A program made the translations under genes and the position numbers. The notes below the pieces were generated by a model that saw only the letters and a list, made by a program, of their open reading frames with translations, did not search any database and had not been told where the DNA came from. A stretch of 63,327 bases of DNA, counting the filler, from Nemertoderma westbladi (lineage: Eukaryota; Animalia; Xenacoelomorpha): the NCBI GenBank assembly GCA_032718475.1. It is 2 parts of 2 records of this genome, joined end to end, with 100 filler letters (N's around TTAATTAATTAA, not from the genome) between each part and the next. Parts side by side here need not be neighbours in the genome. Positions count along the whole stretch, not along the records: positions 31,989 to 63,327 come from JAUCBJ010002577.1; 1 more part is not named here. One strand, written 5' to 3'. Positions 735 through 53,727 of the stretch are shown in pieces (within the stretch, counting starts at the first letter, position 1; each line of letters begins with the position of its first letter).

Positions 735-1132
735 GAAAAACCTATATTCCTGCGACCTTTGTAAGCGAGAAGGTTGGACCAAGTGGACCTGAAGCCAAAT
801 GCGGATATGATATCAATGTGAGTTATGAGCAGGGCGATGCGGAACTCCGTGATATCATAGACAGAGCGCTCAGCTGCACCCAAACCATAACGCTCTCATC
901 TAAGGGCGTCTCCAGCTATGATTTGTGTTTTGCTGATCGCGATGCCACCAGGCATGTATTCAATTCCGGGAGGACAACAACTTGTCATCAGAGCTCTACC
1001 GAATGTCTCGAGACCATTGTTGTTGATGACAAGAAGTTACTGCCCATCACGCAATTACAGGTTGGGGACACCGGTTCGTCCAGCGAGGTGATCTACAGCG
1101 AGAGTGTCAGTGACATTGTCTGCGACGTCTAG
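735..1132 (+). CDS. Terminal coding exon of a protein with a Caspr/neurexin-IV-type fibrinogen-like module (copy 1)
   Basis: Pyrimidine tract plus AG (ttttttcctaaAG, 733-734). The translation VSYEQ..LRDIIDRALSCTQTI...DKKLLPITQLQVGDTGSSSE...DIVC* resembles the CNTNAP motif Y....I..S..CEQ.....K..LPVTQ....DT......L.C. Upstream exons are not visible. Confidence 0.6.
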
Positions 1133-6910: not shown

Positions 6911-9900
6911 ATGATGTTGACAGCGGGAGCGGCAAAACTCGCGGCCAGTAAGAGCCACGGATCGGCAAACTCTCCTCTTCATAGAATGAGGCAGTCGATC
7001 GCCATCCGAACAAACCAGAAAGAATCGCTCGGCCTGCAATCGATACCTAAACACAAACCACTGGCAGGCGCAAAGAAGGGAAACGGGATGAAAGAAAATA
7101 TGTCGCAGAAACGAACGTCGACTGACGGAATAATTCAAGGAGATATCGACAGAAACTCGATAGACCTGTCCACTTCAGGTCATTCTGAATCGCCAACTCA
7201 TCCATCTCCCGTTCCGCACTCATCAGACACAGAAACATCAGAAACGTTCGTCAAACCGGAACCTTCCATCGACATATCGGAACCCGTCCAAACGGAAGCG
7301 AGTTCCCTCAAAAAGAGTAAAATTATCTTCAAAAAGACAATTGGAGCCAATAATGGTAAAGGTGCAATTACGATAAAGCCTGGATCCTTTGATGGGATTA
7401 CTAGAGGGGAATTTAACCCCAGTGCCATAAATTTGGAGAACTCTGTTAACTTCGATTTCAGTACGACGTTCTCAGTAAGCACACCTTCCGAGAAAATCCC
7501 GCACCAGGAACCGGCCGAAATCGGTGAAAATGTCGAAATAATTGACAACCCTATAACAATAAGACACGAAAGGCAAGCCACTAAGGTAGACAGTTGCGAA
7601 TTATATCCTAACGCGATCGAAAAACTGGACCCACAGGAGCTAATAAATAAGATAAAAAATTGTCTACAAGAAATCACCGATAACCGTCCGGCCAACACCA
7701 TCCCCCTACCCGCGGCGCTGAAAACACTCGAAAATAAAGCCTGGTTCAGTGATGATGTTGTGGATGGATTTATGGTACTAATACAACTCCACTTCCCCCA
7801 CACAGCGCCTGTACCAAGCCAACTCGCGGAGCAGCTGAGATCATCGGGCTGTAGCCAACTTTCGGCAATCCAATACGTGGCGACCCGGTATCTCGGTCGC
7901 TATCAATCTATAGCACTGACTCTTCTCTTCTTGCCGGATTGTAATAAAGATCACTTCATCCTTCACATGGCCGACACCAGAGTACGTACCGTGTACGCAA
8001 TAGACTCAAACCGAGCATCGATGCCCATGCGAATACCTTCGCTTTCGCAAATATTCCGAACACAATCGACGAAAATAATCCTTGGAGCAAAAATAAAGCA
8101 ACTGAGAAATGGAAAGTGGGATCAAAGTATACAACGTTAAGTAAGCAGGGGAACAGCTATGATTGCGGGGTGTATGTCTGTCTGGGCTCCCTAACAGTAG
8201 CCCAGGACAAGAATCAGTTACCGCCAATTCATTACGACAGTGCAAAGGCTCGGGGCTGGCTGCAGTCCTGTTTTAAATACTTTAAACTTGCGAATAATGT
8301 GGATGTGGATATCGATTTTGACTATACTCCAGCGACCACCGTCTCTACCGAGGTGAACCATCTCAGCGAACATCGGAATACTGAGGGGAACCCTCCAAAC
8401 CACAAACTAGCGCTGGGAGAACTTGATAATATCATGCATCTACCTAGGAAAGAAGCTCTTAAAATCATATCAGATAAATATTATATGGAGCAAATCTCAA
8501 ATATTCGGAATGACCTGTTCAATTGCGTTACTAAATTAACATCACCTCTCCAACAGGTAACGCTACAGCTGCAATCGCGATCCTCTGCAAGCGCCCTGGC
8601 AACCGACCTTCTAGAACTGCTACGGTGTAGACTAGTGCTGCGAACTGAAACTGAAATTGAACTGGAACTGAAATCGAACTGAAATTGTTTTTGGCAATTT
8701 TAGTGAACTGAAACTAGAACTGAAACATTCATTTTTTTAAAACTGAAACTGAAACTAGAACTGAAACTTGTTATCTTGGAATAGGCCTACTGGAACTGGA
8801 ACTAGAACTGAATTGCCAGAAATTTAAAACTGAAAGTATGATCTATAAATTGGGAATAAGAACAAATTTAAAATTAGCGTTTTTAGTGTTCATAAATACT
8901 ATTTCAATCTTTAATAAATAAATGTAATTTGCTTTATTGTGTTGCAAGACCTACTACTACTGTATAGAAACGAACAGCCAAATCACTGCAAAGTTCATAA
9001 ATTTAGTGGGCCTGTTAAATAGGCCTATCTTAGTTAGAATCTATAAAACAATAGGTCTAGCTCGTCGAAAGTACTTGGCCCTAACTAAATTATGTCCTCT
9101 TTCAGATGATGCAAATAAAAATTGTAATAGCTCCAGTAGTTTTCGAGATTGGGAGTTCCTGGTACCTATTTTAGCACCTTTCGGAATTGAATTACTCAAA
9201 TATATATTTTATTTTAAAGTAATACGTTAATTGTCAACCTAACAATTACCTTTTTGCAGCAAAAAATTCCGGTTGTTTTCATTAAAAATGTAATAAATGG
9301 CAGTCGGATCCATCGGTGGGTACCACACGATTGGCCACGGCAGATTGTTATGTACCAGTATGTAAACAAGACACTTGCAAAATTTTCTGAACATAGAACT
9401 GAAACTACATATTTTTGGGAACTTGAACTTAAACTGGAACTGAAATAAATAGGTTTATTAGAACTGAAACAAGAACTAAAACTGAAATTATTATTTTTTT
9501 GGGAACTGGAACTGAAACTTGAACTGAAATAAACGTGTTTATTAAAACTAAAACTGAAACCGAAACAAGTCAAATTTTCTTTCAGTTCGCAGCACTAGTG
9601 TAGACTAAATGGGTTATTGACAGAACCCTGCCGCAAACGTTTGCGTAAGATTGAATCTACGGATAAAGGTATCACATTGGAAGGCCTCAAGAACGATCTC
9701 ATAACTGCTGTCTCTGCCCTACAGGCTCGCATGTGTATGATCGAGGCTGAGAACTCCAACCTCAAAGAGCGCAGGGGAACTGTGGTAGATGAACTGAGCA
9801 TCGAAAGCCACCATCGAGTCATGTGGGAGTCTAAATTCAACAAACTCAGTTCGACTAAACCAACAATAGGACAGATACTATACGACAATCCCAGCTCAAC

Positions 9901-17697: not shown

Positions 17698-18610
17698 CAC
17701 CCACTCCAGACGCTGTTATGTTGGGGAGTCCCTAGATGTTTGTTGGATTAGGGAGGTGGTCGTGGGAAGAGTATCTTGCCTTCCATAGTTTCCGGACAGT
17801 TCTCGGTCTCGTTCCAGTAAACATAAACGACCAACTGGGCGATTGAGCTGCTGTGTCTCGAAGACAATTCCAGGTTTCCTCTTCGTCCTGGAATAGTGAC
17901 GATAGAAACATCGCTTCAAATACACGACGGCCTTACAAAGCCGATTCCAGGATCTATAGTGGTCCATCGCTCCCGGCAGGAGAGGTGAGAGTCCCGGCGA
18001 GACGTCTGGTGTTCCAGATCTCCAGTCTCTCTCTCTGATCTCCACAACAGATCGGTTCGCGGTGGGGGAGTTTAGATCCACAGTGTCGTCCCTGGCAATG
18101 TGTAGTACAGACAGATCTATCATGGGTTTAAATAACCTTGATTTACTCGTCCGGGTTTTAGGTTTGACTTTCTCCGCTCCCTTGGCTTGCCCAATCTCAA
18201 CCGTGGTAAGATGGGGAGGCCATTCATCTTCTTTACTTAGGAAGTCGGGTCCACCTAACCAGTCTGGAGTATCTGTCAGTTCTTGAGGAGTTGCTCCTCT
18301 GGAAGCGATGACGGCTAAATTAATCGTCTCGGGGCAATGTCTCCATTGATCTACATTGGAGTTAATATCGTCATTATCTGACGAGTATGGTGTTCCCTCA
18401 GTTGGGTCGTCTACCTCACTGCTCTCCGCTTCCCATTCACTTACTTGGTATACCCATTCTTTTGGTAACCTTTCTATGAGAGTTCTACGGGAAGGGCCAG
18501 TAAAGTACCAACCTACTCTAGTTCTTCCCGCATAGGCTTGTAGTGGTTGCGGTTGAGCAGGTCGTTTCTCCGATTTTGGCCGATGAGTATTTGCACTCCA
18601 GGGTAGTCTG
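17698..18610 (-). mobile_element. Internally deleted BEL/Pao pol fragments
   Basis: Pieces match the element at 31989-38114 (DYPGVQILI.QN; VGWYFTGPSRRTL; WRHCP.TIN.A.IASRG), followed by SWNRL...YLKR and the C-terminal RPVGRLCLLE motif. RT, RNase H and integrase core are absent. Confidence 0.85.
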
Positions 18611-21600
18611 CCAAATTTATGGCACTGGGGTTAAATTCCTCTCTAGTAATCCCATCAAAGGATCCAGGCTTTATCGTAATTGCACCTTTTCCATTATTGG
18701 CTCCAATTGTCTTTTTGAAGATAATTTTACTCTTTTTGAGGGAACTCGCTTCCGTTTGGACGGGTTCCGATATGTCGATGGAAGGTTCCGGTTTGACGAA
18801 CGTTTCTGATGTTTCTGTGTCTGACGAGTGCAGAACGGGAGATGGATGAGTTGGCGATTCAGAATGACCTGAAGTGGACAGGTCTATCAAGTTTCTGTCG
18901 ATATCTCCTTGAATTATTCCGTCAGTCGACGTTCGTTTCTGCGACATATTTTCTTTCATCCCATTTCCCTTCTTTGCGCCTGCCAGTGGTTTGTGTTTAG
19001 GTATCGATTGCAGGCCGAGCGATTCTTTCCGGTTTGTTCGGATGGCGATCGACTGCCTCATTCTATGAAGAGGAGAGTTTGCCGATCCGTGGCTCTTACC
19101 GGCCGCGAGTTTTGCCGCTCCCGCTGTCAACATCATTCCTACAGGTTGTGTGTATTCCTTGACTTAATCTTGGGGGATCTTCTTAGTCGAAGGAGGGGGT
19201 AATGGCTTGAAGGGCAACCCGGAGAACCGGTGCCAACTCAAACTTACGGTACGGTTACAGTTAAAATTATCACGAAAGTTAAGAGCAGTTTTTCGTATTT
19301 CAGCAGTTCAGTTCAGCTACGGTACGGATGCAATGTGCTGTGACCTCTAGCTACTCAAGATTATCCTCAAGAACAAAGATAATGTCAGATTTACCACGTC
19401 AAAACCCAGTAAACAGAGTTACTGGGTTTCCAGCAGTTTGAGATACTGGGTTTTGACGTGGGATTTCCCGAATGCAGATATGCCAAACCAAAACCCAGTA
19501 ACTCCGGCAACGCAACAGACGTAGACAAATAATTAAATGTTCTAGAATATTATATTCTAGAATGTTGCCTCTTTGTTTTCGCTAACCGTTGGTGAAGGAA
19601 GTCAGAGTTACTGGGTTTTGGCGAAGGGACTTGTCAGTTACTTGGTTTTGGCATGTGAAAGGTAACTGATTGGAAAAGTTAAATGCTAGTTTACTGGGTT
19701 TTGGTGTGGGCAAATTAGTTACTGTGTTTTGAAATGGGAATCGTGACGTTACTGGGTATTGATGCATGAAAAATCACAATTATTTTGTTTTCTACCATAC
19801 CAAAACCGTGTAAGTCGATTTATATGAATAGTAAGGAATAAATAAATAAAAAAAGTTTTGGCACTAATATACAGTATACTAAGTACAATTTGTAAAGGTA
19901 CACAAAATTATAACTCATTAAATTAAATTTTAACCAAATGCCAGCTGTTTAAAGTCCAAAAACTTTAAACGCGATTATCTCGAAAAGTCAAAAAATGTAC
20001 TTACTGGGTTTTGGTTTGGAGCTGCCGACTTGTTTACACATTTCTCTCTGTGTAGGTTGACTTACCTTATCTATTAATAGGGTATTCATAGTTATTATTT
20101 CTCTACTAGTTGGTTAACATTTATTCCTATGTGCTAACTCTGATTGTTGCTCTTCTAATTCTAATAACTCGTTCTGTTCCCTAATAAGTGCTTTCTTTGC
20201 CACATATTCTTTCTCTCTATTTCATTCTGTTTAATTGGTATCAATTCTCTCGCCCTCGCTTCCTCATTCCTTAAGGGCACGTGTTTGTCCATACATTTGA
20301 CTATTAAGCTTATGTACCTCTTCTGAGGAATTGGTTCAACAGAATGGCTTGAATTTTGGAGGGGAATTAATTTTGCATGTGTCTCAGACTTTTGGTTTGC
20401 AGAATAAATAAAAAAATGTATTGTGATCACCAGAAATTTTCAAAGTGAAAAATGTTATTATTGTAAAAAGTGAAAAAAACTCGTATTTTGGCCGTTTTTT
20501 GTGATGTAACTTTTTCAATTTCTAACCCACATGTCTAAATGTGCTACCACCTATAAAGGATTAGTAGAAGAACATCTACTGAAAATTTCATGCAATTTGG
20601 TTCAAATAGTTCCAGTAGTTCCAGATAAACAGGTACATGAGTGAAAAATAAAAACGAAAAATAAAATTCTGAGATAAATCCATTTAAAGTTTTCAAACCT
20701 TCCCACCATTTTATGTTAAATGGAGGGATAATTCAAATTGTATTGAAAAAATAAGGAAGAATACTTCTTAACTAAAATTTTCGATATGGGGGTTTTCTGG
20801 GGTGGTGATTGCATTTCCGATGTCAGTTTTGACGTTTGATGAATTCCAGACTGTCAGTCTGTCTGTCTACCGAACTGAAATTTAGGTTAGGGTGGTTTTC
20901 CTGGTCGGTGATTTCAATACCAATGTTAGTTTTCACGTTTGAAGAATTCCAGACTGTCTAACTGTCAGACTGTCTGTTTATCAAACAATCTGTCCGTCTG
21001 TCAGTCGAAATTTAGGAAAGGACACAACATCGCAAAAAATGTAGTTAGAGGGGTTTTCCTGGACGGCGATTCCATTTCTGTGACTGGGTAAGATTTAGTA
21101 CGCGTCACCTGACTGCTGGTCTGCTGGGCTAGTGTCCTTTTGGCTGAAAGCTGTTGGGGAAAAATAACAGAGGTTGTGTTCCTCAATGTTAATGTTCCAA
21201 ATGATAATAGCACAGAATTAGTTACAGTATGTGATTGAAATCGCAATACAGAATAACAGCAGATATACAATTGATGTTAGTTGACGTAGTGACGGTCAAA
21301 AACTATAACCGATCTGCAACTCTGTGACTGTGATTAATGAACTGACTGGTAAATCAGTAACACAGAATAACTATATGATTGATACGCATAGATATTGGTT
21401 TCACCTCTTACTCTACTTGGCCTTCTGTACCCAATGGATGCTTTCCTATCTCTGTTCACGTGCTCCCCTGCCCGCTATTGGCTTATATAGCTTATTGCAG
21501 GTCCCTCAAACCAGCCGTCTGCCATAGACCATAGACATAGTCTGCAGTACTGCAGTATGCAACTATAGCTCAGTAGTAGTTAGATAGGCCTACCCTAATC

Positions 21601-31183: not shown

Positions 31184-31581
31184 CTAGACGTCGCAGACAA
31201 TGTCACTGACACTCTCGCTGTAGATCACCTCGCTGGACGAACCGGTGTCCCCAACCTGTAATTGCGTGATGGGCAGTAACTTCTTGTCATCAACAACAAT
31301 GGTCTCGAGACATTCGGTAGAGCTCTGATGACAAGTTGTCGTCCTCCCGGAATTGAATACATGCCTGGTGGCATCGCGATCAGCAAAACACAAATCATAG
31401 CTGGAGACGCCCTTAGATGAGAGCGTTATGGTTTGGGAGCAGCTGAGCGCTCTGTCTATGATATCACGGACTTCCGCATCGCCCTGCTCATAACTCACAT
31501 TGATATCATATCCGCATTTGGCTTCAGGTCCACTTGGTCCAACCTTCTCGCTTACAAAGGTCGCAGGAATATAGGTTTTTC
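31184..31581 (-). CDS. Caspr-like terminal exon, copy 2
   Basis: Mirror of 735-1132; two amino-acid differences (AELR/AEVR, SCTQ/SCSQ), frame intact. Confidence 0.6.
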
Positions 31582-31888
31582 CTTTAGGAAAAAATATAAA
31601 TATAGCAGAAACCATTCTAACATTCTTACTGGTTAAAGCAATATAATAGACCAACCAACCACCCACCCAACCATACCACCCACCCCACCGCTACGCAGCC
31701 ACGGCGCTCCGGCACCCGTAAATCCAACCATACTGACTCCTTAACGAAGGGCATCGAGTGATGCTATTAGCCAACATTGTTAGCAGGGCTGGACTAAGGC
31801 CTAGGCTAGCTAGGCTATAGCCTAGGGGCCCCCGACTTTTTGGGGCCCCCAATTCCAATAACAGGTAAAGGAGATGCAAATTAAAAAT

Positions 31889-31988
31889 NNNNNNNNNNNN
31901 NNNNNNNNNNNNNNNNNNNNNNNNNNNNNNNNTTAATTAATTAANNNNNNNNNNNNNNNNNNNNNNNNNNNNNNNNNNNNNNNNNNNN
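31889..31988. other. Assembly gap containing an artificial TTAATTAATTAA linker
   Basis: 100-base N run with an embedded six-frame stop linker. Confidence 0.95.
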
Positions 31989-34900
31989 TCCTCTGGAGGC
32001 GATGTCAGCTGGGTTAATCGTACCAGGGCAATGTCTCCATTGATCTATCGTTGTGCGACTAAGAATAATGGCCACTCTGTTAGTAACAAAGACGCTGAAC
32101 TGACAGACTTCATTCGTTATATATTCCAACACAAGTAAAGCGTCGGTCCAATAAACAGTTTTCTCCAGTGGATAATCGATCTGTTCTGTTACATTCCGGC
32201 CGATAGCTGTAGCGTATAAAGCTGCTTTTAACTCCGCCCGAGGAACCTTAAGCTTGTTGTTAATCAATGCCTTAGAGGTAACCAAGGCAACTTTGATTCC
32301 ATCCGGAGTTTCGACTCGCAGGTATGCTACTATACCGATTCCCATATCGCTGGCATCTCCAAATACATGGAGTTGATAGGAATACGTAGGGAGAACATGA
32401 CCAAAATATGAACGGGAAATTATAAAGTTCTCGATGGCAGGTAGCGAGTCCTCCCATTTCATCCATTTCTTTAATAGTTCTCCCTTGAGTGGATCGTCCC
32501 ACGAGTGGTTTTCAAGCCACATTTGTTGTACTAAACTCCGAGCAATCAATATAACTGGGCTAATAAATCCCAAGGGATCGAAATAAGTGCTCAGAATACT
32601 TAAACAAATCCGTTTGGTCCGAACTGGATTATCTCGCTGTTTTAGCTGAAAAAACAGGATATCTCTTTCTGTGTCCCACTTCAAGCCAAGCGTCTTGGTT
32701 TCCGGAAGATCGTCATGTATTAAGTCGAGGTCTTTTGATCCCCGGTCTTCTACAGATATTGCTTCCAGAAACTCACGGGAGTTGCTGGTGAACTTCGTCA
32801 ATCGAAATCCACCTCTTTTCAAACACTCAACCGTTCCTTTCGCGACATCAATGGCTTCTTTTACTGATGGAAGGGACTTTAAATTGTCGTCCATGTATAT
32901 GTCTCGTTTGATGTTATCTATCACCTCTTTGGAGAAGGCATCCCGGTTGTCATCCGCAGTGGTACGAACCACTGAACAGGCGTTTGAAGGGCTTGATATA
33001 ATCCCAAAAGCCTGGATGGTCATCCAGTACTCTACCGGTTTCTGGTTGAGATCTCCTTCAGGCCACCACAGGAATCTTAGGCTGTCTCTATCACGATCCA
33101 ATGCCTTGACTTGTAAGAACATTCCTTCTATATCGGAGGCGAACGCGATGGAATATTGTCTTAATCTTAAAAGTATTCCCAACAAAGATTGGAGCAAGTT
33201 GGGTCCTGGTAACAACTCGGAATTGAGGGATTGGCCCATATATAGGGCGGAGCCATCAAATACGACCCGTACTTCATGGGGTTTACCGGGTTTGGGAACG
33301 TAATGATGTGTTAGATAATAAGTTCTTTCAGTTATTGGAGTTCCTTCCGGTACTCGCTCCGCATATCCCTTTGTGATAAATTTCTTCAACTGAGTTTGGT
33401 ACATTTCCTTAGCTGAAGCATTTGCCGTAAGACGTCGATGTAATTGATTGATTCTTTTCTCAGCCAAGGGTCTGTTATTTATAAATCTAGGTTCCCGTTT
33501 TCGGAAGGGTAGTCCGATTTCATATCTACCTTGATCTTTTAAAAAACGTGTGGTTGTTTCCTGGATTTGCTTGGCTCTTTCTTCTTCTATCGACAGGGCT
33601 TTGTCGTATGAATTGGGTTCTACCAATTCTTGGGTAAAGAATCGTACGGCTAGTTCGTCCCGAGTTCTAGCGTTGTAGCGCTCTATCTCATCGTTAAGTT
33701 CGTCATTGTAAGCAATGGGTTCCGATGGGCGAATCAGTTGACATAGATTCACCTGATTTTTCCAAGTTTGGTTTTCGGTAAGTAGGTCCATTGTGTTCTC
33801 TTCATCGAAGAGTTGGTAGATGTCGTCATTATCTGAGGAGTATGGTGTTCCCTCAGTTAGTTCGTCCACCTCACTGCTTTCCACTTCCCAATCGTTTACT
33901 TGATATATTTGTTCGTGTGGCATTCTCTCTTCGAGAGTTCTACGGGAAGGGCCAGTAAAGTACCAACCTACTCTAGTTCTTACCGCATAGGTTTGCAGTG
34001 GCTGTGGTTGAGCAGGCCGTTTCTCTAATGTTTCGAGCGCCTCGTGCGCGTTTTGGTCGATGAGTATTTGCACTCCAGGATAATCTGTCTGGAATCGAGG
34101 TATCTTAAGATGTTGGATGCTCTCATCTTCGTCCCAATTATAAAGGTCTGCTTGAGTAGTAGCAAAGTTCTTTATAGCCACCATTTTTACTGACCTTATA
34201 CCTTGTGTTCCTAACTTATCCTGGGGGGTGGACAACACACCTACATAGTAATCTGCCGTTAGGGTAGATTTCCAAACCTGCATAATTCCTGACATATTCA
34301 ATTTAGTCCGGAACTTGGGTTGTCCAGCAAAGATATCTTCGGCTAGTTCTTGATTGATGAATGTTCCTGTGCTGCCGGAGTCAAGGAGGGCGTTCACTAT
34401 GTAGCTTTTGTTAAGACCGTGAACTCTTACTTGAACTACAGGAAATTCTCTGATTCCTACGTTGGAAGCTGGAGCTTTCCAAGATGGTTGTTTGGCGAAA
34501 GTAGTTGGGGGAAACTCATCGTTGATGTCCTTTTCGTAAGTAAGTGCTCGATACACTGCGGTATTTATTAGATAACAGGATTCATTGGCGTCGGAGAATT
34601 CGTCAGTATAGAATCCTTCCATCTCAGACTCTTGATCAGTGTCGTTTACGTCACTGAATTGGACATGTAGTTCGGGCTCACTTACCTGACTCTGTCTGTC
34701 TCGTTCGAACTCACTGTGTAACAAGATGTGATGTTTCGCGCCACACTTTGCACACTTTATGTCGGAGTAACAGGTTCGCCGTTGATGTCCTGGTCTGAGG
34801 CAATTATAGCATAACCGCTTGTCCCACACGACTGTACGTCTGTCTACAAGGGATTTCTTTAGAAATTCAGCACACGCACTCAAACGGTGGGTCCCGTCGC

Positions 34901-37900
34901 ACAGCGCACAGTTAGGTTTTATGTTACTCACTTTACCTTGGGTAACTTGATGCACTCTCGTTTTTTCTTCGGGTTTTCTTCGGTGCATTCTGTTAGGAGA
35001 CTGAGGAGGGGTCTTGGCAACCTGTTCTCTCCTATCGTTGTTTCGAGCCTTGTATTTACTTACGTCCTTTGAGGTTTTGTCAACATAGTAAGATCGGTCT
35101 GTGTCTTTCCCGCTGTCCTCTTCTTGGGAAGCTTGGCTTTCGCCGTCGTCAGTGTAACACACCGGTGTTACTCTTCTCCTAGAAGTGGGTTTCTCACTTA
35201 CCTTATTTTCCGATGTTTTCTCTCTGGACTGCTTGATGAGTTGTAGTTTTACTTCACCATCTAAGAAAGACATGAGATCAGCCATGGTAGGACTTCGTCG
35301 TTGTTGTTCATTCATGTACAACACTTTCTTGTCCCAGCGTGTACATACTCCACCCTTTGGTAAAGTAGAGACTACGGCTCCAATAACCATGGAACTCTGA
35401 TATTCATGCGACTTACCTAACCAGTCCAGTTGTCTACAGATCTCTTGAATTTCATCGGAAAACTCTATAATCCCGCTACTAAGGAAGTGTCGGGGGGCTA
35501 CTAATTTTGCATACAAATACTTAGCTATGTTATCCTTGTTACCATACCTGATGTTTAATGTATCCCAAACTTGTCTTAATCCATCTGGATGTCCAATAAA
35601 CTTTAACGCCATTAACTTGGGAGGTCCTTCCAAGCACTTGATGAGGAATCTAAGTTTCTCTCCGTTAGATAGTACAGAGTTCTGTATGCTATCTTTGTAA
35701 TATTCGTTGAAAGGTAACCATTTCATCTCATCTCCATTGAATTTGACGATCTCTCCCACTTTGACCGCTTGGCGGGCTTCTGTTCTAGCCATCTGACGCG
35801 TAAAGCTTTCTTGGGCCATCGTGTTATTTAATATCGAATTATCGGTATATAAATTTCTCGGATTATTATCAGGTCTATAGGGAATATCATTAGCAACAGG
35901 CGTATAATCACCCTTAATAGGGTTTGCTATAGGAGTTTCTACTTCACTAGCAGTATAGATGCGTGTAGGCTCCACACCTTGCGCATGTAGTACTTCAGAC
36001 CTAACAGGTTGACACAATGTTACAGGGGGTATTGGTATGCCCTTTTGGATATTGACTAATTTGTCGCGTTCTAGTGCGATACTTTGCTGCACTTCTTGCA
36101 ACTCTGCTCTACCTTCCCTCACTGTTCCCTTAAGTTGGTGGACAGTCTCCTGCATCTGTCCTAGCAGGAGATTCATCCCCCGCCGTCCCTCTTCTACCCA
36201 CTCAACCGCCGAAGCGGGAGTCGCCAACATAGTAGCGGGCTGACGCGGGACGACGGGAGACAAATCTTTGATTTCTCTCTCTGCTATCCGGACAGGGATA
36301 TTCTCTTGGACTGTTCTACCGGGTACAGGCAGTGTAGTACTATGTAAAGGGAATTTAGAGTTAAGCTCTGGAAGTACAGGGGTCTCTAACACAGAAGTGA
36401 CTTTGGGAACGACAGGCCTAATTATTTCAGGCTCATCAACTATTGTAGGGAGTCTTTTGACCTTAATACTTTGGGCTGTAGGTTCTATACTACTCAAGTC
36501 TGTGCTAGCTAGCTGTCTTCTAACAGCTGGGGGCAAATCAGGCAATTTGCGACGGTAAGATGTTTTTCTACGCCTACTTAGATGAGATCTATTTCCTCCG
36601 CCTTCAGGATCGGTGGTCTCGCCTTCCTCCGAGGATGTGTATCCCTGGCGCTTGGGAGTAGATTTTCTCATCATCTGCATTTGATTAGCAGTAAACTGTT
36701 TATTTATACTGTCTTGCGTCTCTTGCAGATTTTCCAACTTCAGTTGGATAGTCTCCTCAGAAGCTCTCTGTTCTGCTTCTGCCACTGCTGCTTTTCTTTC
36801 TGCTTCTGCTTCTGCCGCCTTTCTTTCGGCTTCTGCTTCTGCCGCTTTTCTTTCGGCTTCTGCTTCTGCCGCCTTTCTTTCGGCTTCTGCTTCTGCCGCT
36901 TTTCTTTCGGCTTCTGCTTCTGCCGCCGCTGCTGCTGCCACCTTTCTTTTCTCTATCCATTCTTTCTTTACTTGTTCTTCTCGGACTCTAGTGAGGCGGA
37001 GTTTTTCATCAAATTCAGCTTGGTTTGCAGCTAACATTTCGGCATTGATTGAGTCCAACACAAGCTTGGTTCCTTCACTATTAGGGGAAAGTCCAGACAG
37101 CCGTCTCCTCAACTCTTCGTCTCCTAGGAATCGCTGATAGTCGGACAGATAAATGTCGATAGCGTCTCTAGTTCGCGGTTTCTCGGCGGTCTCTTCGCTT
37201 TCCGCTTGAGAAAGGGTGACATCAGTTTGTTCTTCATAGGTTGATCTCTCAGCCAGCTGGGATTTCCACTGGGCCGTTTCCTGTACTTTGAGACCTACCC
37301 GATGGAACCAAGTTTTGACAGCAACCTGCAGCGACGTGTCCTGTCTTCTTTTGGAAGTTTCCTCAAAGGCTGATAGGATTAGTCGAATGCGTAGGGTTCT
37401 TTCGCGTACTTGGTATAGCAGCTCTTCCTGCTCTTGAGGTCCTTGGGGTTGTCGAAACAGTTGTTCTTCCAATCGCTCCAAGGAGCCGAAGAATCCCTGC
37501 ACATATCCTGCTGCCGACCTCTTCCAAACAGCTGGATCCATTGTATCTTTAGCCACTCCCATCCTGTGTATATCTTCCCAAGTAGCCTCGGACAGATCCA
37601 ACGGGAGTCCGAGTCCGGGAAAGTTCCATTGTGACTCGACAATAGACATCAATTCTTCCCTGGCGTATCCCGCATAATTATCTTGGGTCGCTCGCTTATT
37701 TCTCGCCCAGTCGGCTTGATGTTCCTCCACCGCAATGAATATAGTAGTTAGCACTGCAGCAGGAAGGGTGAGAAGGGGGTCCGAGTAGACAGTAGCAGCC
37801 ATCTGCACTCCGTGTTCAGGGGTCAGCTCTACAGTATCCGAACTACTGGAGCTATCGGGTCGCTGGGAAGTAGGTTCTTGACCAAGATGTTGCTGCGATA

Positions 37901-38114
37901 GGACAACTGCCTCTTGGTTCCGTTTGACCTGTGCCCGAGTGCCTATGATGGACCTATGGTGGATTAGCCTAGGGTCTGATACTACTGGAGGGATGACCTT
38001 TCTTGCAGTAGGAGGTGAGCTGAACTCCTTTCTTAATCGCTCCACACTCCTATCTGTGTCACAGATGGTTGTATCGATCAGACTGTCTGACAGGTTTTGC
38101 TGAGTGTCAGACAT
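31989..38114 (-). CDS. BEL/Pao LTR retrotransposon gag-pol polyprotein (runs into the gap before integrase)
   Basis: Single open frame with gag (KFNGD...W..F), three Cys/His knuckles (CALC..H....C, CYNC....H....C, CAKC...HH.LLH), protease LLDSGS, RT (RVVFDGS, DIEGMFLQV, YMDD) and RNase H (HVFGDAS, PRAELKAA, WTD, NPADIASRG). Confidence 0.97.
36775..36935 (-). repeat. 27-bp coding repeat (AAEAEAERK) x ~5 in gag
   Basis: Visible in both DNA and translation. Confidence 0.95.
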
Positions 38115-43816: not shown

Positions 43817-45743
43817 TTACAAATTTGGAAAAATTACGTCACCTCTAGCACTGTAACTGTCACCGGTACTTTTGAAGCACATTGGTGAACAGGTGAACGT
43901 AGATATCGTAGTTGTCCAATTGGTGATAAAAAATAATGTGGTTAATGGTCTGGTTTCCACTGATAATGGCATTTGCAAATATCCATTACGTGTATCCAAT
44001 TTTGTGAAAAATTTATTGCCTGTGCCAATTTAGGTTGTTGCTTCTATTGGTGTAGGTGCTGGATATAAAGGTGAGTGTCTTTGGGTCGGCACAAATACAA
44101 ATTGTTTTATCTGGTTAGCGAACTGTTACCATCGGATGGTACCAAATGGCAGGTTCATCGGCGCTTACCAGTTCTATAACGCCAGTGTTAATCATAGAGT
44201 TTGTTGGCGAAGACAAACGGGAATTGTGCGTGCAGTCCTAATAGCAGTGGGTGTGTAATTTCCTTTCAAGTGTGTATATCCATTGGAGTACCAGCTGAAC
44301 CACACATTGGTTGTAGTTCTTCAGAGTCATTAAATACTGTGTTAAAATAGTGTGTAAGTTTATCCCAAATTGCCAATTTCTCAATTTCAGAAGAATTTTG
44401 TGGTATTGAATTGTTAAAATCCATGGTTTGTATCTCTGTATATATTGGCAAGCAAGTTGGTAACGTTAGTGAAGGGTAATCTTAATTCAATTATTTAGTT
44501 ACAGATGCAACAAATGAGTTATTATTATAAATTGGTTCGGGGAAATTGGATAAGATTATTCCTAATTTGCAACAGGTGTCACTACAGTATCTAGGATATA
44601 CCATTGACACCTTCATAAATTGTTTAGACAGTTGTTGCATGCTTAGTACAGTAAATAATTTAATGTCTAAAAGTTATTTGACCAATCTTGCTTATAATAC
44701 CACCATTGATATTTTTGTATGGTTTTTCGTTAGATTGGATAATTGGTTTAATTTCAGCCGAAATACCAAGATGGTGATCAAAATCATAACCTGCAACTGT
44801 CTTGTCAGTTCCAGTTCGAAACCTAAGATGAAAAGAAAAGCTAATAATTCATCTTCATCGATATCTCCGACTGCCCGTCTATTTGCTATAAGTTTTGCTT
44901 TAAATACCCCAGGTGAAATGCCATTCTGTGATGTGGTCAGGAAATTTTTCCAAGCAGTTGATTTTCTGCATAACCAGTACAGGTACTGTATGATGCCAAG
45001 ACTAAGACTATGACACCTGTACAAGTTTTTGGATCAATGGCTGGTGAATTTGTGCAGATTAAATTTAAAAAATCCGGTATCATGGGCAATGAGCCATCTA
45101 TGATGATTCAGGAATATTTGATGCCATCGCATAATTCCTCCCATAGTATTCGCCATTCTGTGAAAAACATGAAGTCAGTGTCCTTGGTAAGACGTTGTGT
45201 GGTGGGGACATCACGTATATTTGTTGGTAAGGGCGCGTTAGCGGTAGGGGTGGTATTGTGAATTTTCTAATTTCTTGATTTGAGAATTGCATCAGCGTCG
45301 TATTGTTTCCTAGCAATACCTCCATGTATTTCATCTTGAATTTCGTCGCTTAAAGCATCTAACTCCTGATGGAGGGCGATGACCTCCTTTTCGTACCGTG
45401 CATAACGTTCACGGCCATCTTCATCCACTGTTGTGATAGTTGCTTCATAGTTTTCAGTAACATTGATGAATGCATTGACCAGGGGCTTGATGTTATCGAC
45501 CTCATCATGAAGATATTTGACATGGACTTCGCGACGATGGGCAGAAGTCCATAGGGCTTCCACGGATTGGTGGAGAGATGTAGGCAAAATGCTTTTGTAA
45601 CACGAATTTGTGGTTTGATCCTGGCGTCCTTTGTGACCTTTATATCAGCCATTGTATTTAAGACTGATATTAGTGCTTTAGTATATTAGTCGCTGTTATT
45701 AGTGCTTAGGATTAAAAGAGACGCTTTTACCCACAATGCGCCA
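43817..45743 (-). mobile_element. Decayed Gypsy/Ty3 LTR retrotransposon internal region (PBS, gag, protease region, RT start)
   Basis: ...CACAACA|TGGCGC LTR-end/PBS junction at 45744/45743; gag-like start at 45652; RT motif DTRNGYLQMPLSVETRPLTT; many stops and frameshifts. Confidence 0.7.
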
Positions 45744-46145
45744 TGTTGTGGTTCATCACAGCATTGTTTAGTAAAATGAAATAATATAGTTTAAATAAAC
45801 TACATGTCAATTATTACATTAAAATAAAATGTACATAATATTAAATGTTTTACTTCTAAACTTTTACAAAGAAAAACTCTACAATTATAAAGATACACAT
45901 ATTGTCCTATCACATAGAATCCAGCTGATCGATATAGCTCTCAACAAATCACAAATAACCAAAGTAAAGTACTCTAACCAGATGTCAATAAAAAATAAAC
46001 AATAACCATCACCAATATAATAACGTATAGTTCGTTGTCTTTCATATTATAATGTCCAATGTGATATAATCAACTTGATAGAGTTCAATATCAATTATGG
46101 AATCACTATAATCCGGTAACGAACTGTATGAGTTACAGACTGTAA

Positions 46146-46850
46146 CTACTCTACTGGAACGGTTTCCATTTCGCTGTAGGGTTCTATGATTCTTTCGCGT
46201 TTTACCATGAACGGTTTCCAGCCATCAGAACCGTCTCCTGTGGAATACTTCTTACGTTCCATCACAAGACACGGACCCAAATGTTTCTCCTCTAGCAGTT
46301 CGTTGCAACAACCTCTTCCACCCTCTGGATAATACTTATGTTGTTTAGCCTTGCAGTCACCGATGTGTAGAAAAATCTTTTCACCACTGTTACGATATTC
46401 CTTGTGGAACAATGCCGGGGAATCACATGGTAAAGTATCTGGTGGCTGCCCCACAGGGTATGTAGGTTCAACAATCACAATGTTGTTTGTGTTATCAACA
46501 CCCATACATCTCATGCGATCAGTTTCGAATGTCAGTAGCGAATAAAATCGTTTTGACAAAGAACCCCTTTTTCTATGTTCATATATGTATTGAGTTATTA
46601 TCGTTCCCGACTTACAAGCTGCCTCGTTCTCATAACATTGGAAGGTTATGTCGTTATTGTTATTGTCGCTATCGCACTCCAAGTATTGTGCGTTATAACC
46701 TTTTTTAACAATTTTCGTTTCACTTTTACATTTACTTTCGATATAAATTCTTATTTTATCTCCCTTTCTTCCTGTCCATTTGCATTCATCATCTGTCTCT
46801 TCAACGACACCCGGAGAACAACATAGGCATTTTTTGAGAAATTTCGCCAT
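46146..46850 (-). CDS. Intronless 234-aa protein, putative IL-1/IL-18-family beta-trefoil cytokine
   Basis: Intact ORF (an upstream in-frame ATG at 46907 lies in the transposon end). No signal peptide. Ordered motifs EETD, QYLECD, TIITQYIYE, LLTFE, CMGVDN..IVIVE, PPDTL, ALFHKE, KIF and FMV parallel IL-18 LESD, QVLFID, TIFIISMYK, VTISV, LSCENKIISFKE, PPDNI, IIFFQR, MQF and FTV. Confidence 0.65.
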   Translation of the reverse strand: MAKFLKKCLCCSPGVVEETDDECKWTGRKGDKIRIYIESKCKSETKIVKKGYNAQYLECDSDNNNNDITFQCYENEAACKSGTIITQYIYEHRKRGSLSKRFYSLLTFETDRMRCMGVDNTNNIVIVEPTYPVGQPPDTLPCDSPALFHKEYRNSGEKIFLHIGDCKAKQHKYYPEGGRGCCNELLEEKHLGPCLVMERKKYSTGDGSDGWKPFMVKRERIIEPYSEMETVPVE

Positions 46851-47019
46851 TAATAAATTATTTTTAACACTATACAGCGCCCATGTGAAGTTTCCCAGGA
46901 TTCCCATTCCCAGCGGAAAAAAAACCCATTAGAAAGGAATTTGACATTCATGTGTTGCGCGAAGTCCTCTTTTTTTTTTGAGAAGGGATGGTCTGTTGAT
47001 CACTGGGTCGGACGGTGAG

Positions 47020-48160
47020 TGAGAAGGTGGGCGGGTGGGTGGTAAGGTGGGTGGGTGGAAGGGAATGTGGGAAGGTTGATGGGAATGTGGGAAGATAGGA
47101 ATGGGGGAATGTGGGAAGATGGGAAAATGGGTGGATGGGAATGTCTGAATGTTGGTAGATGTAAATGTGGGTAGATGGGTATGTGGGAAGGTGGATGGGA
47201 ATGTGGGAAGATGATAATGTGGGAAGGTGGATTGGAATGTGGGAAGGTGGGTGGGGATATAGGAAGATGGGAATGTGGATGGGAATTTGGGAAGATGATA
47301 GTGAGGGAAGGTGGATGGGAAGGTGGGAAGTTGGGTGGAATTGTAGGAAGATGGGAATGTGGGAAGGTGAATTGGAATGTGGCAATATGGGAATGTGGGA
47401 AGATGGGAATGTGGAAGGTGGATGGTTATATGGGAAGAAGAGAATGTGGGAAGGGGGATGGGAATGTATGAAGGTGGGTGGGAATGTAGGAAGATGGGAA
47501 TGTGGGAAGATGGGAATATGGGAAGGTGGATGGGAATTTGGGAAGATGATAATGTGGTAAGGTGGATGGGAATGTGGATGGGAATTTGGGAAGATGATAG
47601 TGAGGGAAGGTGGATGGGAATGTGGGAAGTTGGGTGGAATTGTAGGAAGATGGGAATGTGGGAAGGTGAATTGGAATGTGGCAATATGGGAATGCGGGAA
47701 CATGGGAATGTGGAAGGTGGATGGTTATGTGGGAAGAAGAGAATGTGGGAAGGGGGATGGGAATGTATGAAGGTGGGTGGGAATGTAGGAAGATGGGAAT
47801 GTGGGAAGATGGGAATGAGGGGAGATGGGAATGTGGGAAGGTGGATGGAAATGTGGGAATATGGGAATGTGGGAAGATGGAGGGAAATGTAGGAATATGG
47901 GAATTGGGAAGGTGGATGGGAATGTGGGAAGGTAGGTGGGAATGTAGGAAGAATGGAATGTGGTAATAAGATTGGAATGTGGGAAGGTGGATGGGAATGT
48001 GGGAAGATGGGAATGTGGAAAGGTGGGTGGCAATATTGGAATGTTGGAAGAGTTGGTGAGAATGTGGGAAGGTGGATGGGATTGTGGGAAGGTTGATGTG
48101 AATGTGGGAAGATTGATGAAAATTTTGGAAGGTGGTTGGATGGGAATGTGGGAAGGTGGC
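47020..48160 (+). repeat. Degenerate (GGGAATGT/GGGAAGAT)n satellite
   Basis: Direct inspection. Confidence 0.97.
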
Positions 48161-48164
48161 CAGA

Positions 48165-51115
48165 TGGTTATTTATTGTTTTGGTTAGAAAAGACAGCCTC
48201 GGTAACATGCACCTCACCCTCAATTGGTAGGTAGCAACATCGTTTATTGTTTTGGTTAGAAAAGCTCGCCTATGTAACCTGCTCCTTTCCCTCATTTGGT
48301 AGGGATCAACAACGTTTATTGTTTTGGTTAGAATAGAACAATCATGTACCTTGATCCTTTCCTACAATTGATGGGTAACAAAATCGTTTTTGTTTTGGTT
48401 AGAAAATGGCGCCCCTGAAATCTTCTCCTTTCCCTCCATTTATAGGTAACAACAACTTATATTGTTTTTGTTAGAAAAGCGAAACCATGTAACCTAGAAC
48501 AACACAGTTTATTGTTTTGGTTATGAGGTGTGTTAAAATGCCTAGGCAATCATTATATACTTAGTAGGTAATCGTCTGAATATTTAGTAAGTAAGAAACG
48601 GATCCGGATTTTTGACGATTTTCCCAGATAAATGATATTAGTGCTATTCGGAAGAAAGATTGAAGTAATACAGTATTTCTGTATGTATTTGGTATTTACG
48701 TAAAAAATCTTAATTGTTATAATAGGAAATTGGGGAAATGATAAGGATTAGCGGTCATTTTAAGTCATATTTGGGACAGAGGAACATTTGGGTGCATTTA
48801 CATTTACTTGGGTACAATATTTTTATTCATAGCTAACACAATAATGTGTACAGTGTATGTATATTCAATAAGAATACCACCGCAATCGTATTTGGATAGT
48901 AAAACGTATAGCCCCAGTAATCCCTTTGTAAGAATTCATCATTACGTAATAGCTTGTTTATAGTGTTAGATTATTGAGTATAGGTCTATTAGAATAGATC
49001 ACTTTCATTACCATATATGGTAATAATTCTCTGAGAAAGGAGCTAGGAGGGCTATATTCCAGCTCACTCATTAGCTTAGCCATTTCGGTTGCTCCAATGG
49101 CAGGAGTTTTTGCTTGACCATTGGTGACTCATTCTTCTTGTTATGTTTTGTACAGTAGATGGAAGTTGTCATGTGATTTTGTTTTGTTGTTGAATTAAGC
49201 AGTAATCTTACTTAGTTTGTTATGATTTTGCTTTGCTTTTGTACTTTCGCTATAATTAATACAGTAATTTGTACCGTGAAAGACTGACCGATGCATGCTA
49301 TTATTATGTAATCAGTTTCCGCTAACTTAACTGCGTTATTTGCTTACTGCCTTTGCAGTACTCTACACCGGCTTACCGCTAGAATGGCACTCTGCGACAT
49401 GGAGTAGACGGCGTAGGAAGTGCCTACTGGGAGCGCGTTTGAGAGCAGGTGGACAAGATGACAACCTGTGGGGTTTCTATTAAGTAAAGGGAAGTGCGGG
49501 CATGTTTTAGGGATCACTATATGGTGGGGCGGATGCCGTGGGGGTTCTGCTTTACACTTGGGATTTGGTGAAAGTTTTAAGTCGACTGACAGGCCGGAAA
49601 CACCTTTCGTATTTTTAGTCTTAATCCAATATTAATGTTTAATCCAATATTAATGTTTAATCCTATATTTCTAAATCAAATTTAGATAGCCATCTTTGCC
49701 ATTTTAGGTAACCAATTTGTAAATTTTTAAATTTTTAACATTTGTAAATAAAAACATAAGTTAATAAGAACATAAGTTAAGTGATTGAAATAAAACATGT
49801 CAGTACTATTTTTTGCCGACAAAATATTAGCTACAACGTTATTCATTTGTTTATTTTGTTTAGTCGAGTGCAGGAAGGTTGGACAGTATATAGACATACA
49901 TTGGCACTCGGAACGCTAGGTAATCCGGTCCTATTGACAGATGTTTAATCAAGGTTTAGCACATTCGCTATTCAGAATTATTAGATATTTTCGGGTAAAA
50001 TTATAAAATTAAATTAGCCCGCGCCCCAGTGCGCACCCTGAATTACAGAATGTTTGTCGACTGATAAGTCTTTACTACTTGAGTAATAAAATTGATTTTC
50101 CCCTTCAGGAGAAAGTAGCTGGTGAGGTTACACATTTGCCACAGTTAGCAACAGCTGTACGCTCGAGTATAGGACGATTTTCGATTTTTAGCAGCGGTTG
50201 GCTGACCTTGGTGAGTGGACCTGCTTTATTCCCTGAAATGGTAACAACATCGATTATTGTTTTGGTTTGGAAATCATGCCGCTGTAACCTGCTACTTTCC
50301 CTCAATGGGTAGGTAAAAACAACATTTATTGTTTTGGTTAGAAAAGCCCGCCACTGTAACATGCTACTTCCCTCAATTTGTAAGTCACAACATCGTTTAT
50401 TGTTTTGGTTCGAAAATGATGCCGCTGTAACCAGCTCCTTTCCTTAAATTGTTGTAACATGCGTTTATTGATTCCCACATTCACATTCAACTTCCCACAT
50501 TCACATCTTCCCACTTTCACATCCACCTTCTCACATTCCCATCTTCCCATTTATCTTCCCTCATTCCCATCCACCTTCCCATCTCCCCACATTCCCATTG
50601 GTTGGTAACAACATCGTTTATTGTTTTGGTTAGAAAAGCCCGCATCTGTAACCTTATCCTTTCCCTCAATTGGGATGTAAAAACAACGTTTATTGTTTTC
50701 GTTAGCAAAATACTGCCGCTGCAACCTGCTCCTATCCTTCAATTGGTAGGTACGAACAACGTTTATTGTTTTGGTTAGAAAAGCGCTAATCATGTAACTG
50801 CTCCCTTCCTACAATTGGTGGGTAAAAACATCGTTTATTATTATTATTATAAATATTTATTTCAACATAACTAATATTGTCATAGCTCTACTGTACGTAC
50901 TCCACTAAATATATCAATGAAGGACAAGATTAATCTATAGCACAAAATATTAGTTAATACCAAGTCGACGTAGTGCACATATTATTATTGTTTTGGTTAG
51001 AAAAGTAACCTGTAACCTGCTCCTTTACCTCCATTTATATGTAACAACTTATATTGTTTGGTTAGAAAAGCAAAACCATGTAACCTGCTCAACACATTAA
51101 CGTTTGGTTAGAAAA
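48165..51115 (+). repeat. ~72-bp tandem repeats (TTTATTGTTTTGGTTAGAAAAG core) interrupted by unrelated inserts at ~48525-50222 and ~50840-50982
   Basis: Core motif at 48171, 48243 and 48315, and again from ~50250. Confidence 0.85.
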
Positions 51116-53640
51116 ATCCCAATTCCATCTTCCCAGATTCCCATCCACCTTCCCATCCATCTTCCCTCATTCCCATCTACCTTCCCACATCCCTTCCCAG
51201 ATTCCCATCTTCCTACATTCCCATTTTCCCACATTCCCATCTTCCGATAATCCCATCCACATTCCCATATTTCTATATTCCCATCCACCTTTCCATCTTC
51301 CCACATTCCCATCTTCCTACAATCCCACCTCTCTTCCCATATTCCCACATTCCCATCTCCCTACATTACCATTTTCCTACATTCCATCTTTCTACATTCC
51401 CATCTTCGCACATTCTCATCCACCTTCCCACATTTACACATATCAATATTCTCACATTCTCATCTTCCTATATTCCCATCCACATTCCCATATTCCCATC
51501 TTCCCATCCACCTTCCTATCTTCCCATCTTCCTACAATCCCATCTCTCTTCCCATATTCCCACATTCCAATCTTCCTACATTCCTACCCATCTTCCCACA
51601 TTCCCATCTCCCTATAATCCCATCCACCTTCCCACATTTACACATATCAATATTCTCACATTCTCATCTTCCTATATTCCCATCCACATTCCCATATTCC
51701 TATCTTCCCATCCACCTTCCCACATTCCCATCTTCCTACAATCCCACCTCTCTTCCAATATTCCCACATTCCCATCTTCCTACATTCCCATCTTCATACA
51801 TTCCCATCTTCCTACATTCCCACCTACCTTCCCACATTTACAAATATCCATATTCTCACATTCCTATCTCCCTACATTCCTACCCACCTTCACACATTCC
51901 TATCTTCCTACATTCCCATTTTCCTACATTCCCACCTTCCTACATTCCCATTTTCCTACATTCCCATCTTCCCACATTTCCATCTTCCTACAGTCCTACC
52001 CACATTCGCACATTCCCATCTTCCCACATTCCCATCTTCCTACCTTCCGACATTCCCACCTACCTTCCCACATTCCCATCCACCTTCCCACATTCCCATC
52101 CCTCCAACATTCCCATTTTCCCACATTCCTAACTTTCTATATTCCCAACCACATTCCCACATTCCCATCTTCCTACATTCCCATCATCCTACATTCCCAC
52201 CTAACTTCCCATATTCCCATCCACCTTCCAATCCATCTTCCCACATTCCCATCTACTATCCCGCATCCCTTCCCAGATTTCTATCTTCATACATTCCCAT
52301 CTTCCCACATTCCCCTCCACCTTCACACATTCCCATCTTCCCACATTCTCACTTACCTTCGCACATTTCCATCCACCTTCCCACATTCACATCTTTTCAT
52401 ATTCCCATCTTCCTACATTCCCATACACCTTCCCACATTCCCACCCACCTTCACATCTTTCCACATTACCATCCACCTTCCCACATTCCCACCCACCTTC
52501 CCATCTTCCTACATACCCATCTTTCCACATTCCCATATTTATACATTTCCATCCACCTTCCCACATTACCATCTTCCTACATTCCCATCTTCATACATTC
52601 CCATCCACCTTCCCGCATTCCCATCTTCCTACATTCCCTCCCACATTACCATCTACCAACATTCCCATATTCATACATTCCCATCCACCTTCCAATCCAT
52701 CTTCCCACATTCCCATCTACCTTCCCGCATCCCTTCCCAGATTTCTATCTTCCTACATTCCCATCTTCCCACATTCCCATCCACCTTCACACATTCCCAT
52801 CTTCCCACATTCTCTCCTACCTTCGCGAAATCCCATCCACCTCCCCGCATTCCAATCTTCTCAAATTCCTATCTTCCTACATTCCCACCTATCTTCGCAT
52901 ATTTCCATCCACCTTCCCACATTCACATCTTTTCATATTCCCATCTTCATACATTCCCATCCAACTTCCCACATTCCCACCCATCTTCCCATCTTTCCAC
53001 ATTACCATCCACCTTCCCACCCACCTTCCCCATCTTCCTACATACCCATCTTTCCACATTCCCATATTTATACATTTCCATCCACCTTCCCACATTACCA
53101 TCTTCCTACATTCCCATCTTCCTACATTTCCTCCCACCTTCCCACATTCCCATCTTCCTACATTCCCATTTTCCCACATTCCTAACTTTCTATATTCCCT
53201 CCCACCTTCCCACATTCCCATCTTCCTACATTCCCTCCCACATTACCATCTTCATACATTCCCAACCACCTTCCCACATTCCCATCTTCCTACATTCCAT
53301 CCCACCTTCCCACATTCCCACACCTTCGTGCAATCCCACCCACCTTCCCACCCACCTTCCCATCTTTCCACATTACCATCCACCTTCCCACCCACCTTCC
53401 CATCTTCCTACATACCCATCTTTCCACATTCCCATCTTTATACATTTCCATCCACCTTCCTACATTCCCATCTTCCTACATTCCCATCTTCGCACATTCC
53501 CATCCATCCACCCACCTTCCCATCTTCCTACATTCCCATCTTCCCACATTCCCATCTTCCTACATTCCCACCGACCTACCCACCAACCCACCCACCACCG
53601 ACCGACATACCGACAACCGACTGACCGACCGACCAACCAA
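51116..53640 (-). repeat. Degenerate (ACATTCCC/ATCTTCCC)n satellite, inverse of 47020-48160
   Basis: Direct inspection; a small block also lies at 50470-50600. Confidence 0.97.
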
Positions 53641-53727
53641 CCGGCGCCCGAAGTTGACTCATTTTGGCTTTCCTGGGCACTCTGGGATTGTTCACATGGG
53701 CCCTACAAATACAACTACCGGTAGAAT

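Follow-up and report, generated by a model that had tools for sequence, protein, structure and literature searches.

Results

An uninterrupted reading frame lies between two mobile elements

We analyzed a stretch of 63,327 nucleotides of Nemertoderma westbladi DNA (assembly GCA_032718475.1), referred to here as the window, which is repeat-rich and holds LINE and Pao/BEL coding regions. Its minus strand carries an open reading frame (ORF) whose predicted product, P0001, has a calculated mass of 26.9 kDa (approximately 24.7 kDa after a cut at the proposed site). The features of the locus are:

46146..46850, minus strand: uninterrupted ORF of 234 codons for P0001, a leaderless, IL-1anc-like protein (translation; stop codon at 46146-46148)
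46818..46850, minus strand: residues 1-11, basic and amphipathic, with Cys8, Cys10, and Cys11 and no Gly2; predicted S-acylation anchor (charge, hydrophobic moment, conservation)
46785..46802, minus strand: residues 17-22 (EETDDE), an acidic linker that contains the putative caspase site (translation; one of the two other versions has another residue at E17)
46191..46778, minus strand: residues 25 to about 220 (end approximate), likely a beta-trefoil of IL-1anc type (five ordered motifs, Atlas leads)
46877..53703, unstranded: element of 6.8 kb that starts 26 bases 5′ of the ATG and contains GGGAATGT arrays; it has inverted repeats at its termini and a duplicated target, TACA
45744..46120, minus strand: segment resembling an LTR, immediately 3′ of the stop codon; it ends sharply at 45744, where a TGGCGC similar to a primer site follows, and its other end can be placed only within 46100-46137
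43820..45652, minus strand: broken gag-pol-like remnant with frameshifts and stops (RVT_1 match at E 0.052, which does not reach the curated cut-off)

Translation of positions 46788-46850 on the minus strand gave exactly 21 codons, MAKFLKKCLCCSPGVVEETDD, which are residues 1-21 of the ORF; the lysine- and cysteine-containing motif followed by a caspase-type string that had been described there from the sequence is indeed present. A hydropathy scan of P0001 revealed no signal peptide or membrane helix (best 19-residue value 0.41), tblastn of the window found no second copy, and our literature search found no work bearing directly on the gene.

The stretch is contained in four publicly available DNA runs, X1 to X4, all from a single organism; they come from three studies, with X2 and X3 derived from one sample. 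The gene is present in several related versions, alleles or paralogues, and the summed contig depths are several times those of the contigs identical to the window. Farther than about 26 bases upstream of the ATG, the DNA of the window no longer matches that of the other versions, also past the inserted element, and for this reason the copy in the window may have lost its promoter. It lies between two mobile elements and may be transcriptionally impaired.

The upstream element reaches a high copy number in the runs, where many contigs have other flanks at its end. It is foldback-like: its interior holds long inverted GGGAATGT arrays and repeats of 72 bases, its terminal repeats are short, and its target duplication measures 4 bases. 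On the other side of the ORF, independent contigs cease matching the LTR-like segment at 45743/45744, 46100, and 46118, and a search with a piece of the gag-pol remnant found no relative. Depth drops to about one copy across the join between the ORF and the LTR-like segment (46096-46139), and other LTR-like contigs run into unrelated DNA. Because this join is at about single-copy depth, the LTR element is at most a possible carrier of the gene.

Elsewhere in the window, an intronless ORF of 143 amino acids without a Pfam match occurs twice in inverted orientation (701-1132, plus strand; 31184-31615, minus strand), within a several-kb inverted duplication containing 32- and 40-base minisatellites. 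A Pao/BEL gag-pol frame of more than 2,000 codons (31941-38114, minus strand) ends at an assembly gap. A 409-amino acid ORF (6911-8140, plus strand) and a shorter inverted copy (18513-19136, minus strand) belong to a 2.6-kb duplication that is 98% identical; this ORF lies upstream of a LINE endonuclease/reverse transcriptase region, has no Pfam match, and appears by eye to resemble an Ulp1-type protease in its C-terminal part.

The ORF probably starts at the ATG at 46850

The original prediction would have failed had the true start been located in an upstream exon, and this now appears unlikely. In contigs of runs X1, X2, and X3, the other versions have an in-frame TGA 10-11 codons 5′ of the ATG, and inspection by eye of the approximately 50 bases upstream of the ATG in two of these versions (from a loose end at 46870) revealed no AG. 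On these two grounds, the ATG at 46850 is likely the true start, and the splicing in of an upstream exon is unlikely. In the window itself, the frame stays open for 19 more codons and reaches an ATG at 46907; we rejected this codon as the start because it falls within the inserted element that begins at 46877. Three AG dinucleotides occur within codons 17-19, preceded by 40-60% pyrimidine, and a weak splice acceptor is possible at that point. The ORF may also contain short in-frame introns.

P0001 is likely an interleukin-1-type protein

Sequence searches with P0001 returned 0 matches in Pfam (E up to 10), PDB sequences, 1.84 billion representative proteins, and viral and metagenome contigs. 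The same was seen in 5.8 billion proteins, in both a near-length search and a search for longer proteins with residues 22-165. Two AlphaFold2 runs without an alignment gave models with a pLDDT of 35.6 and 35.7. Since models at this level (pLDDT approximately 36) make structural comparison uninformative, the best Foldseek E-value of 0.8 and the best VIA-align Z of 3.6 (none ≥5) weigh neither for nor against any fold.

Leads from the ESM Atlas, among the rows shown, scored 0.84-0.88 and comprised ricin-type, CDT, I66, AbfB, fascin, FRG1, FGF, and MIR families, all of which we take to be beta-trefoils. The best named rows among those shown were fascin/FRG1 and lectin-type families (0.86-0.88), and IL-1 (PF00340) was absent from the rows shown. 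All of these scores are below 0.9, and the recognition value of 1723 is below 2300.

Invertebrate IL-1anc proteins are missed by BLAST and HMMER (Fontenla-Iglesias et al. 2026, PMC13736523), and we compared the published members with P0001 by eye and with short motifs only. Five motifs of starfish IL-1anc occur in order in P0001, at residues 25-37, 55-73, about 88-90, 102-105, and 145-151, where they read W-x-G then I-x-I-Y-I; Q-Y-L..I-x-F..Y; Y-x-Y; Y-S-L-L; and P-x-L-F-H-K. The order common to P0001 and the starfish proteins is W-x-G..I-Y-I, YL..F..Y, Y-x-Y, YSL, and P-x-L-F/W..K. At most 2 of the 5 ordered motifs were recovered in any of 100,000 shuffles or in any of the 72 further frames of the window that are open for at least 100 amino acids; as the motifs were taken by eye from the published proteins, written after the query had been seen, and in one case loosened, these figures are to be read as a strong lead and not as a statistic of homology.

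By eye, the nearest members are the starfish proteins AplaIL-1.2 to 1.7 and PminIL-1.4 to 1.10 (PMC13736523), which P0001 resembles in being leaderless, in lineage-specific expansion, and in its invisibility to BLAST and HMMER. Several hallmarks of the family are lacking in P0001. The (F/L)ES motif of strand 9 is absent, the aligned column by eye being F160-L161-H162; this motif is often but not always conserved, and some listed IL-1anc members also lack it (PMC13736523). There is no N-terminal PDZ domain: 24 residues precede the trefoil, no Pfam match was found, and the other versions have the upstream in-frame stop. The PDZ domain is likewise absent in a small subset of IL-1anc proteins (PMC13736523). 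Trefoil introns are missing, all five motifs lying in one uninterrupted frame, whereas the IL-1anc trefoil is encoded on 3-5 exons with conserved intron phases in all species examined in that work. P0001 further differs from IL-1anc proteins in having long inserted stretches at two places, about residues 38-53 and 165-200, and in a pro-piece of only about 24 residues. When the window was inspected for linkage to GCC2, ESD, EIF2A, TRAF3, or an IL-1 receptor gene, 19 unspliced frames gave retroelement families or nothing.

The original prediction had assumed an IL-1/IL-18-like parent protein. The motif order and the language-model leads speak for this assumption, while the models, at a pLDDT of approximately 36, lend it no fold support. 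P0001 is likely an interleukin-1-type protein, judged from its sequence, and we file it as IL-1anc-like and not as a member of IL-1anc.

Other versions of the gene differ mostly outside residues 1-10

All 37 differences were listed over 46480-46877 in the version comparison, which distinguished two versions reaching the 5′ part of the ORF. Version one (X1, X2, and X3) has 6 differences in 105 bases, among them two synonymous changes in codons 5-6, the replacements Ser12 to Cys and Val16 to Cys, and one unlisted change. Version two (X2 and X3) has 14 differences and 2 gaps; it shares the two synonymous changes, replaces Cys11 by Pro, Ser12 by Cys, and Glu17 by Ile, and has a one-base shift at codons 15-16 that is compensated, so that residues 15-17 are replaced; 4-6 further changes are unlisted. 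By inference from the listing rule, the unlisted changes of both versions fall no more than 30 bases from the contig end, in codons 19-28. Thr19-Asp21 fall at the contig ends, and the residues there are not readable in the other versions.

Across the ORF, at least 53 differences were listed; 9 in two locally realigned stretches were dropped and 44 were classed singly. Eleven of the 44 were synonymous and 33 were not (expected synonymous site share 0.20, p = 0.25), and none introduced a stop (chance 0.08). Among the insertion and deletion events listed, the frame was kept by all 4 in the ORF and by 3 of the 10 in the flanking DNA (Fisher p = 0.07, or p = 0.12 when a difference at the last codon is counted as a fifth ORF event). 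Contigs of X1 and X4 differ at this last codon and do not share the stop codon of the window. In one run, several amino acid changes set the version of the window apart from nearly all covering contigs. At 46609, one contig each in X3 and X4 leaves the ORF for unrelated DNA; a truncated or interrupted copy therefore exists.

The pattern of differences fits a fast-changing coding family, with recent decay also possible. Substitutions are near neutral, and the versions could therefore be decaying duplicates. The copy in the window, or the whole set, would on this reading be a decaying retrocopy or a passenger of mobile elements, whose motif was inherited and is now idle. The lack of introns, the presence of a mobile element no more than 30 bases away on either side, and the divergence from nearly all covering contigs in that run agree with such an origin; against decay stand the absence of stops, the in-frame events, and the unchanged residues 1-10, and against a mobile passenger the single-copy depth of the LTR join. 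We regard this explanation as unlikely, albeit one to be taken seriously.

The N-terminal head is a predicted lipid anchor

Residues 1-11 have a computed net charge of +3 and a hydrophobic moment of 0.52, which ranks 6 among the 224 windows of the protein. At least three Cys with at least three Lys/Arg in the first 12 residues were found in 0.28% of 100,000 protein shuffles, a [DEILVWY]-E-x-D string of caspase type between residues 11 and 30 in 3.5%, and both together in 0.012%, all with criteria set after the sequence was seen. Ala2 precludes N-myristoylation of P0001.

Residues 1-10 are identical in both of the other versions, in contigs of X1 to X3; those of X4 do not reach them. The head region contains 3 and 5 cysteines in these versions. 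The CxCC pattern, whose conservation was to support the original prediction, held in part: a cysteine cluster was kept in both versions, but Cys11 is Pro in one of them. S-acylation of GAP-43 depends on Cys3/Cys4 and adjacent basic residues and involves no myristate (PMC6944663). Proteins of this type have, like P0001, N-terminal cysteines, a hydrophobic patch, and basic residues, with neither myristate nor Gly2; in P0001, however, the basic residues precede the cysteines and acylation is predicted. The head of P0001 is likely a fatty-acid membrane anchor. As a prediction, the lipid anchor proposed earlier gains from the unchanged residues 1-10, the persistence of the cysteine cluster, and the similar N-termini among published IL-1anc proteins described below.

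Acylation-type N-termini occur among published IL-1anc proteins

We counted by eye the proteins of Table S2 of PMC13736523 (104 rows, 71 invertebrate), leaving out one vertebrate row with such an N-terminus that looks misannotated. At least two Cys within the first 14 residues were found in 8 of the 71 invertebrate rows (AplaIL-1.4, AplaIL-1.7, PminIL-1.9, PminIL-1.10, SpurIL-1.5, and three amphioxus proteins), and two further rows have Gly2 plus one Cys. The chance expectation is 2 to 4 Cys-rich rows vs 8 observed (binomial p = 0.0007 to 0.05, depending on the assumed Cys frequency), with the reservation that the 8 rows come from only three lineages (starfish, sea urchin, and amphioxus) and are not independent. 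SpurIL-1.5 is cytoplasmic in 293T cells (PMC13736523), and an anchor in this protein is therefore not favored.

BfloIL-1, BlanIL-1, BbelIL-1, PminIL-1.9, and AplaIL-1.4 have, like P0001, lysine and clustered Cys in the first 14 residues. These amphioxus and starfish proteins have Gly2, a candidate for myristoylation, and in them a PDZ domain separates the anchor from the trefoil, whereas in P0001, with Ala2, the anchor joins the trefoil directly. The main text of PMC13736523 and its seven supplements with readable text make no mention of acylation, and our literature search found no paper combining "IL-1anc" with "acylation".

The proposed caspase site behind the head is likely not the release switch

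According to the original prediction, a caspase cut at ETD|D releases the cytokine from its tether. In the corresponding mechanism, an inflammatory or initiator caspase would cut the acylated pro-form after D20 or D21, and the trefoil would leave through gasdermin pores. Both EETD20 and ETDD21 provide Asp at P1 with accepted P4-P2 residues, and EETD sits 4-5 residues ahead of the first trefoil motif. Mammalian pro-IL-18 is cut just before its trefoil, and we know of no lipid anchor in IL-18; like P0001, pro-IL-18 and pro-IL-1alpha have a short or cleavable pro-piece in front of the trefoil. The P1′ residue would be Asp21 for a cut after D20 or Glu22 for a cut after D21, whereas caspases prefer Gly, Ala, or Ser (PMC13071377). 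Moreover, P0001 contains three x-E-x-D strings. Conservation of the ETD region, which was also to be expected from a release site, differs between the versions: one has at most 1 change in codons 19-28, and the other combines the replaced E17 and the shift at codons 15-16 with 4-6 changes there.

Published IL-1anc data also point in both directions. SpurIL-1.3 is cleaved by human caspase-1 and by a sea urchin caspase at DEPD184|G, the only mapped site in an invertebrate IL-1anc, and known IL-1 cleavage sites diverge widely (PMC13736523). Starfish rows of Table S2 have LETD/LEND approximately 15 residues before the same W-x-G motif. On the other side, the aspartates of SpurIL-1.3 nearer to its trefoil (D226, D227, and D229) are not the cut site, and 7 of 8 IL-1anc proteins tested were not cleaved (PMC13736523). 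From the sequence, the caspase-type string behind the head is likely not a release switch; the claim of release at ETD|D keeps its P1 residue and is weakened by the P1′ residues and by the version remodeled there, and we consider the complete caspase mechanism improbable.

Discussion

A tentative model of a membrane-held IL-1-type protein

Our preferred reading, to which we give a probability of roughly 45%, is that P0001 is a retroposed, duplicated, PDZ-less IL-1anc-like protein held by S-acylation on cytosolic membrane faces and freed by lysis, de-acylation, or cleavage of the linker. The ORF, its motif, and the retention of residues 1-10 in other versions are read directly from the DNA. The protein would fold as an IL-1-type trefoil from Trp25 onward, its amphipathic Lys/Phe/Leu patch would dock on anionic membranes, and a DHHC enzyme could then acylate Cys8, Cys10, and Cys11, as in GAP-43. 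The cytokine would sit on the Golgi or plasma membrane, on the side facing the cytosol. Exit is the weakest step: it might follow lytic death, or proceed through pores after de-acylation or a linker cut, which could fall anywhere in the variable residues 12-24 and not necessarily be made by a caspase at D20/D21. An S-acyl anchor keeps a protein on the cytosolic face of membranes, and a cut alone would therefore not free P0001 from the cell. The gene may have originated by retroposition from a PDZ-less transcript, followed by duplication.

Alternatively, the acylated head could be an export signal leading, through unconventional transport, to a surface-displayed cytokine that acts by contact. 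Leishmania HASPB and Plasmodium AK2 need no more than N-terminal acylation together with basic residues to be exported (PMC8182054), and pro-IL-1alpha has a myristoylated membrane form (PMC7827341). The HASPB and AK2 signals, however, use myristoylation of Gly2 where P0001 has Ala2, and IL-1alpha, unlike the predicted form of P0001, is myristoylated on Lys82 and not S-acylated at its N-terminus; we find this route very doubtful. Equally hard to credit is a membrane-anchored protein with another beta-trefoil (fascin/FRG1, lectin, or intracellular FGF) or another fold and no cytokine role, which would agree with the best Atlas rows shown and the missing FES motif but not with the lack of a Pfam match to those families or with the ordered IL-1anc motifs.

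If the S-acylated, cytosol-facing protein of our preferred reading exists, the gene would represent a pared-down design of candidate lipid anchor, short linker, and trefoil. Invertebrate IL-1 proteins were first described only in 2025-2026, and their route out of the cell is stated as open in the Discussion of PMC13736523. The acylation-type N-termini in 8 to 10 of its 71 invertebrate proteins are unremarked in its main text and readable supplements, and an intronless, multi-copy form is unlike the gene structures it describes. The lipid-anchor model can be tested at once with the annotated starfish and amphioxus genes. The boldest version would be an expressed, retroposed family of PDZ-less IL-1 proteins, acyl-anchored and set free when a linker of 10 residues is cut once, with N-terminal acylation as an ancient, unrecognized control on invertebrate IL-1 that is common to starfish and amphioxus. 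We would call this combination a long shot.

Two further N-terminal patterns are seen in Table S2 of PMC13736523 and are undiscussed in its main text and readable supplements. One, of the dual-acylation type, combines Gly2 with cysteines at the start of starfish and amphioxus IL-1anc proteins. The other, present in three sea anemone IL-1anc proteins, is a basic amphipathic stretch with Trp-x-Cys at its end, which in one of the three was scored as a nuclear signal in that publication.
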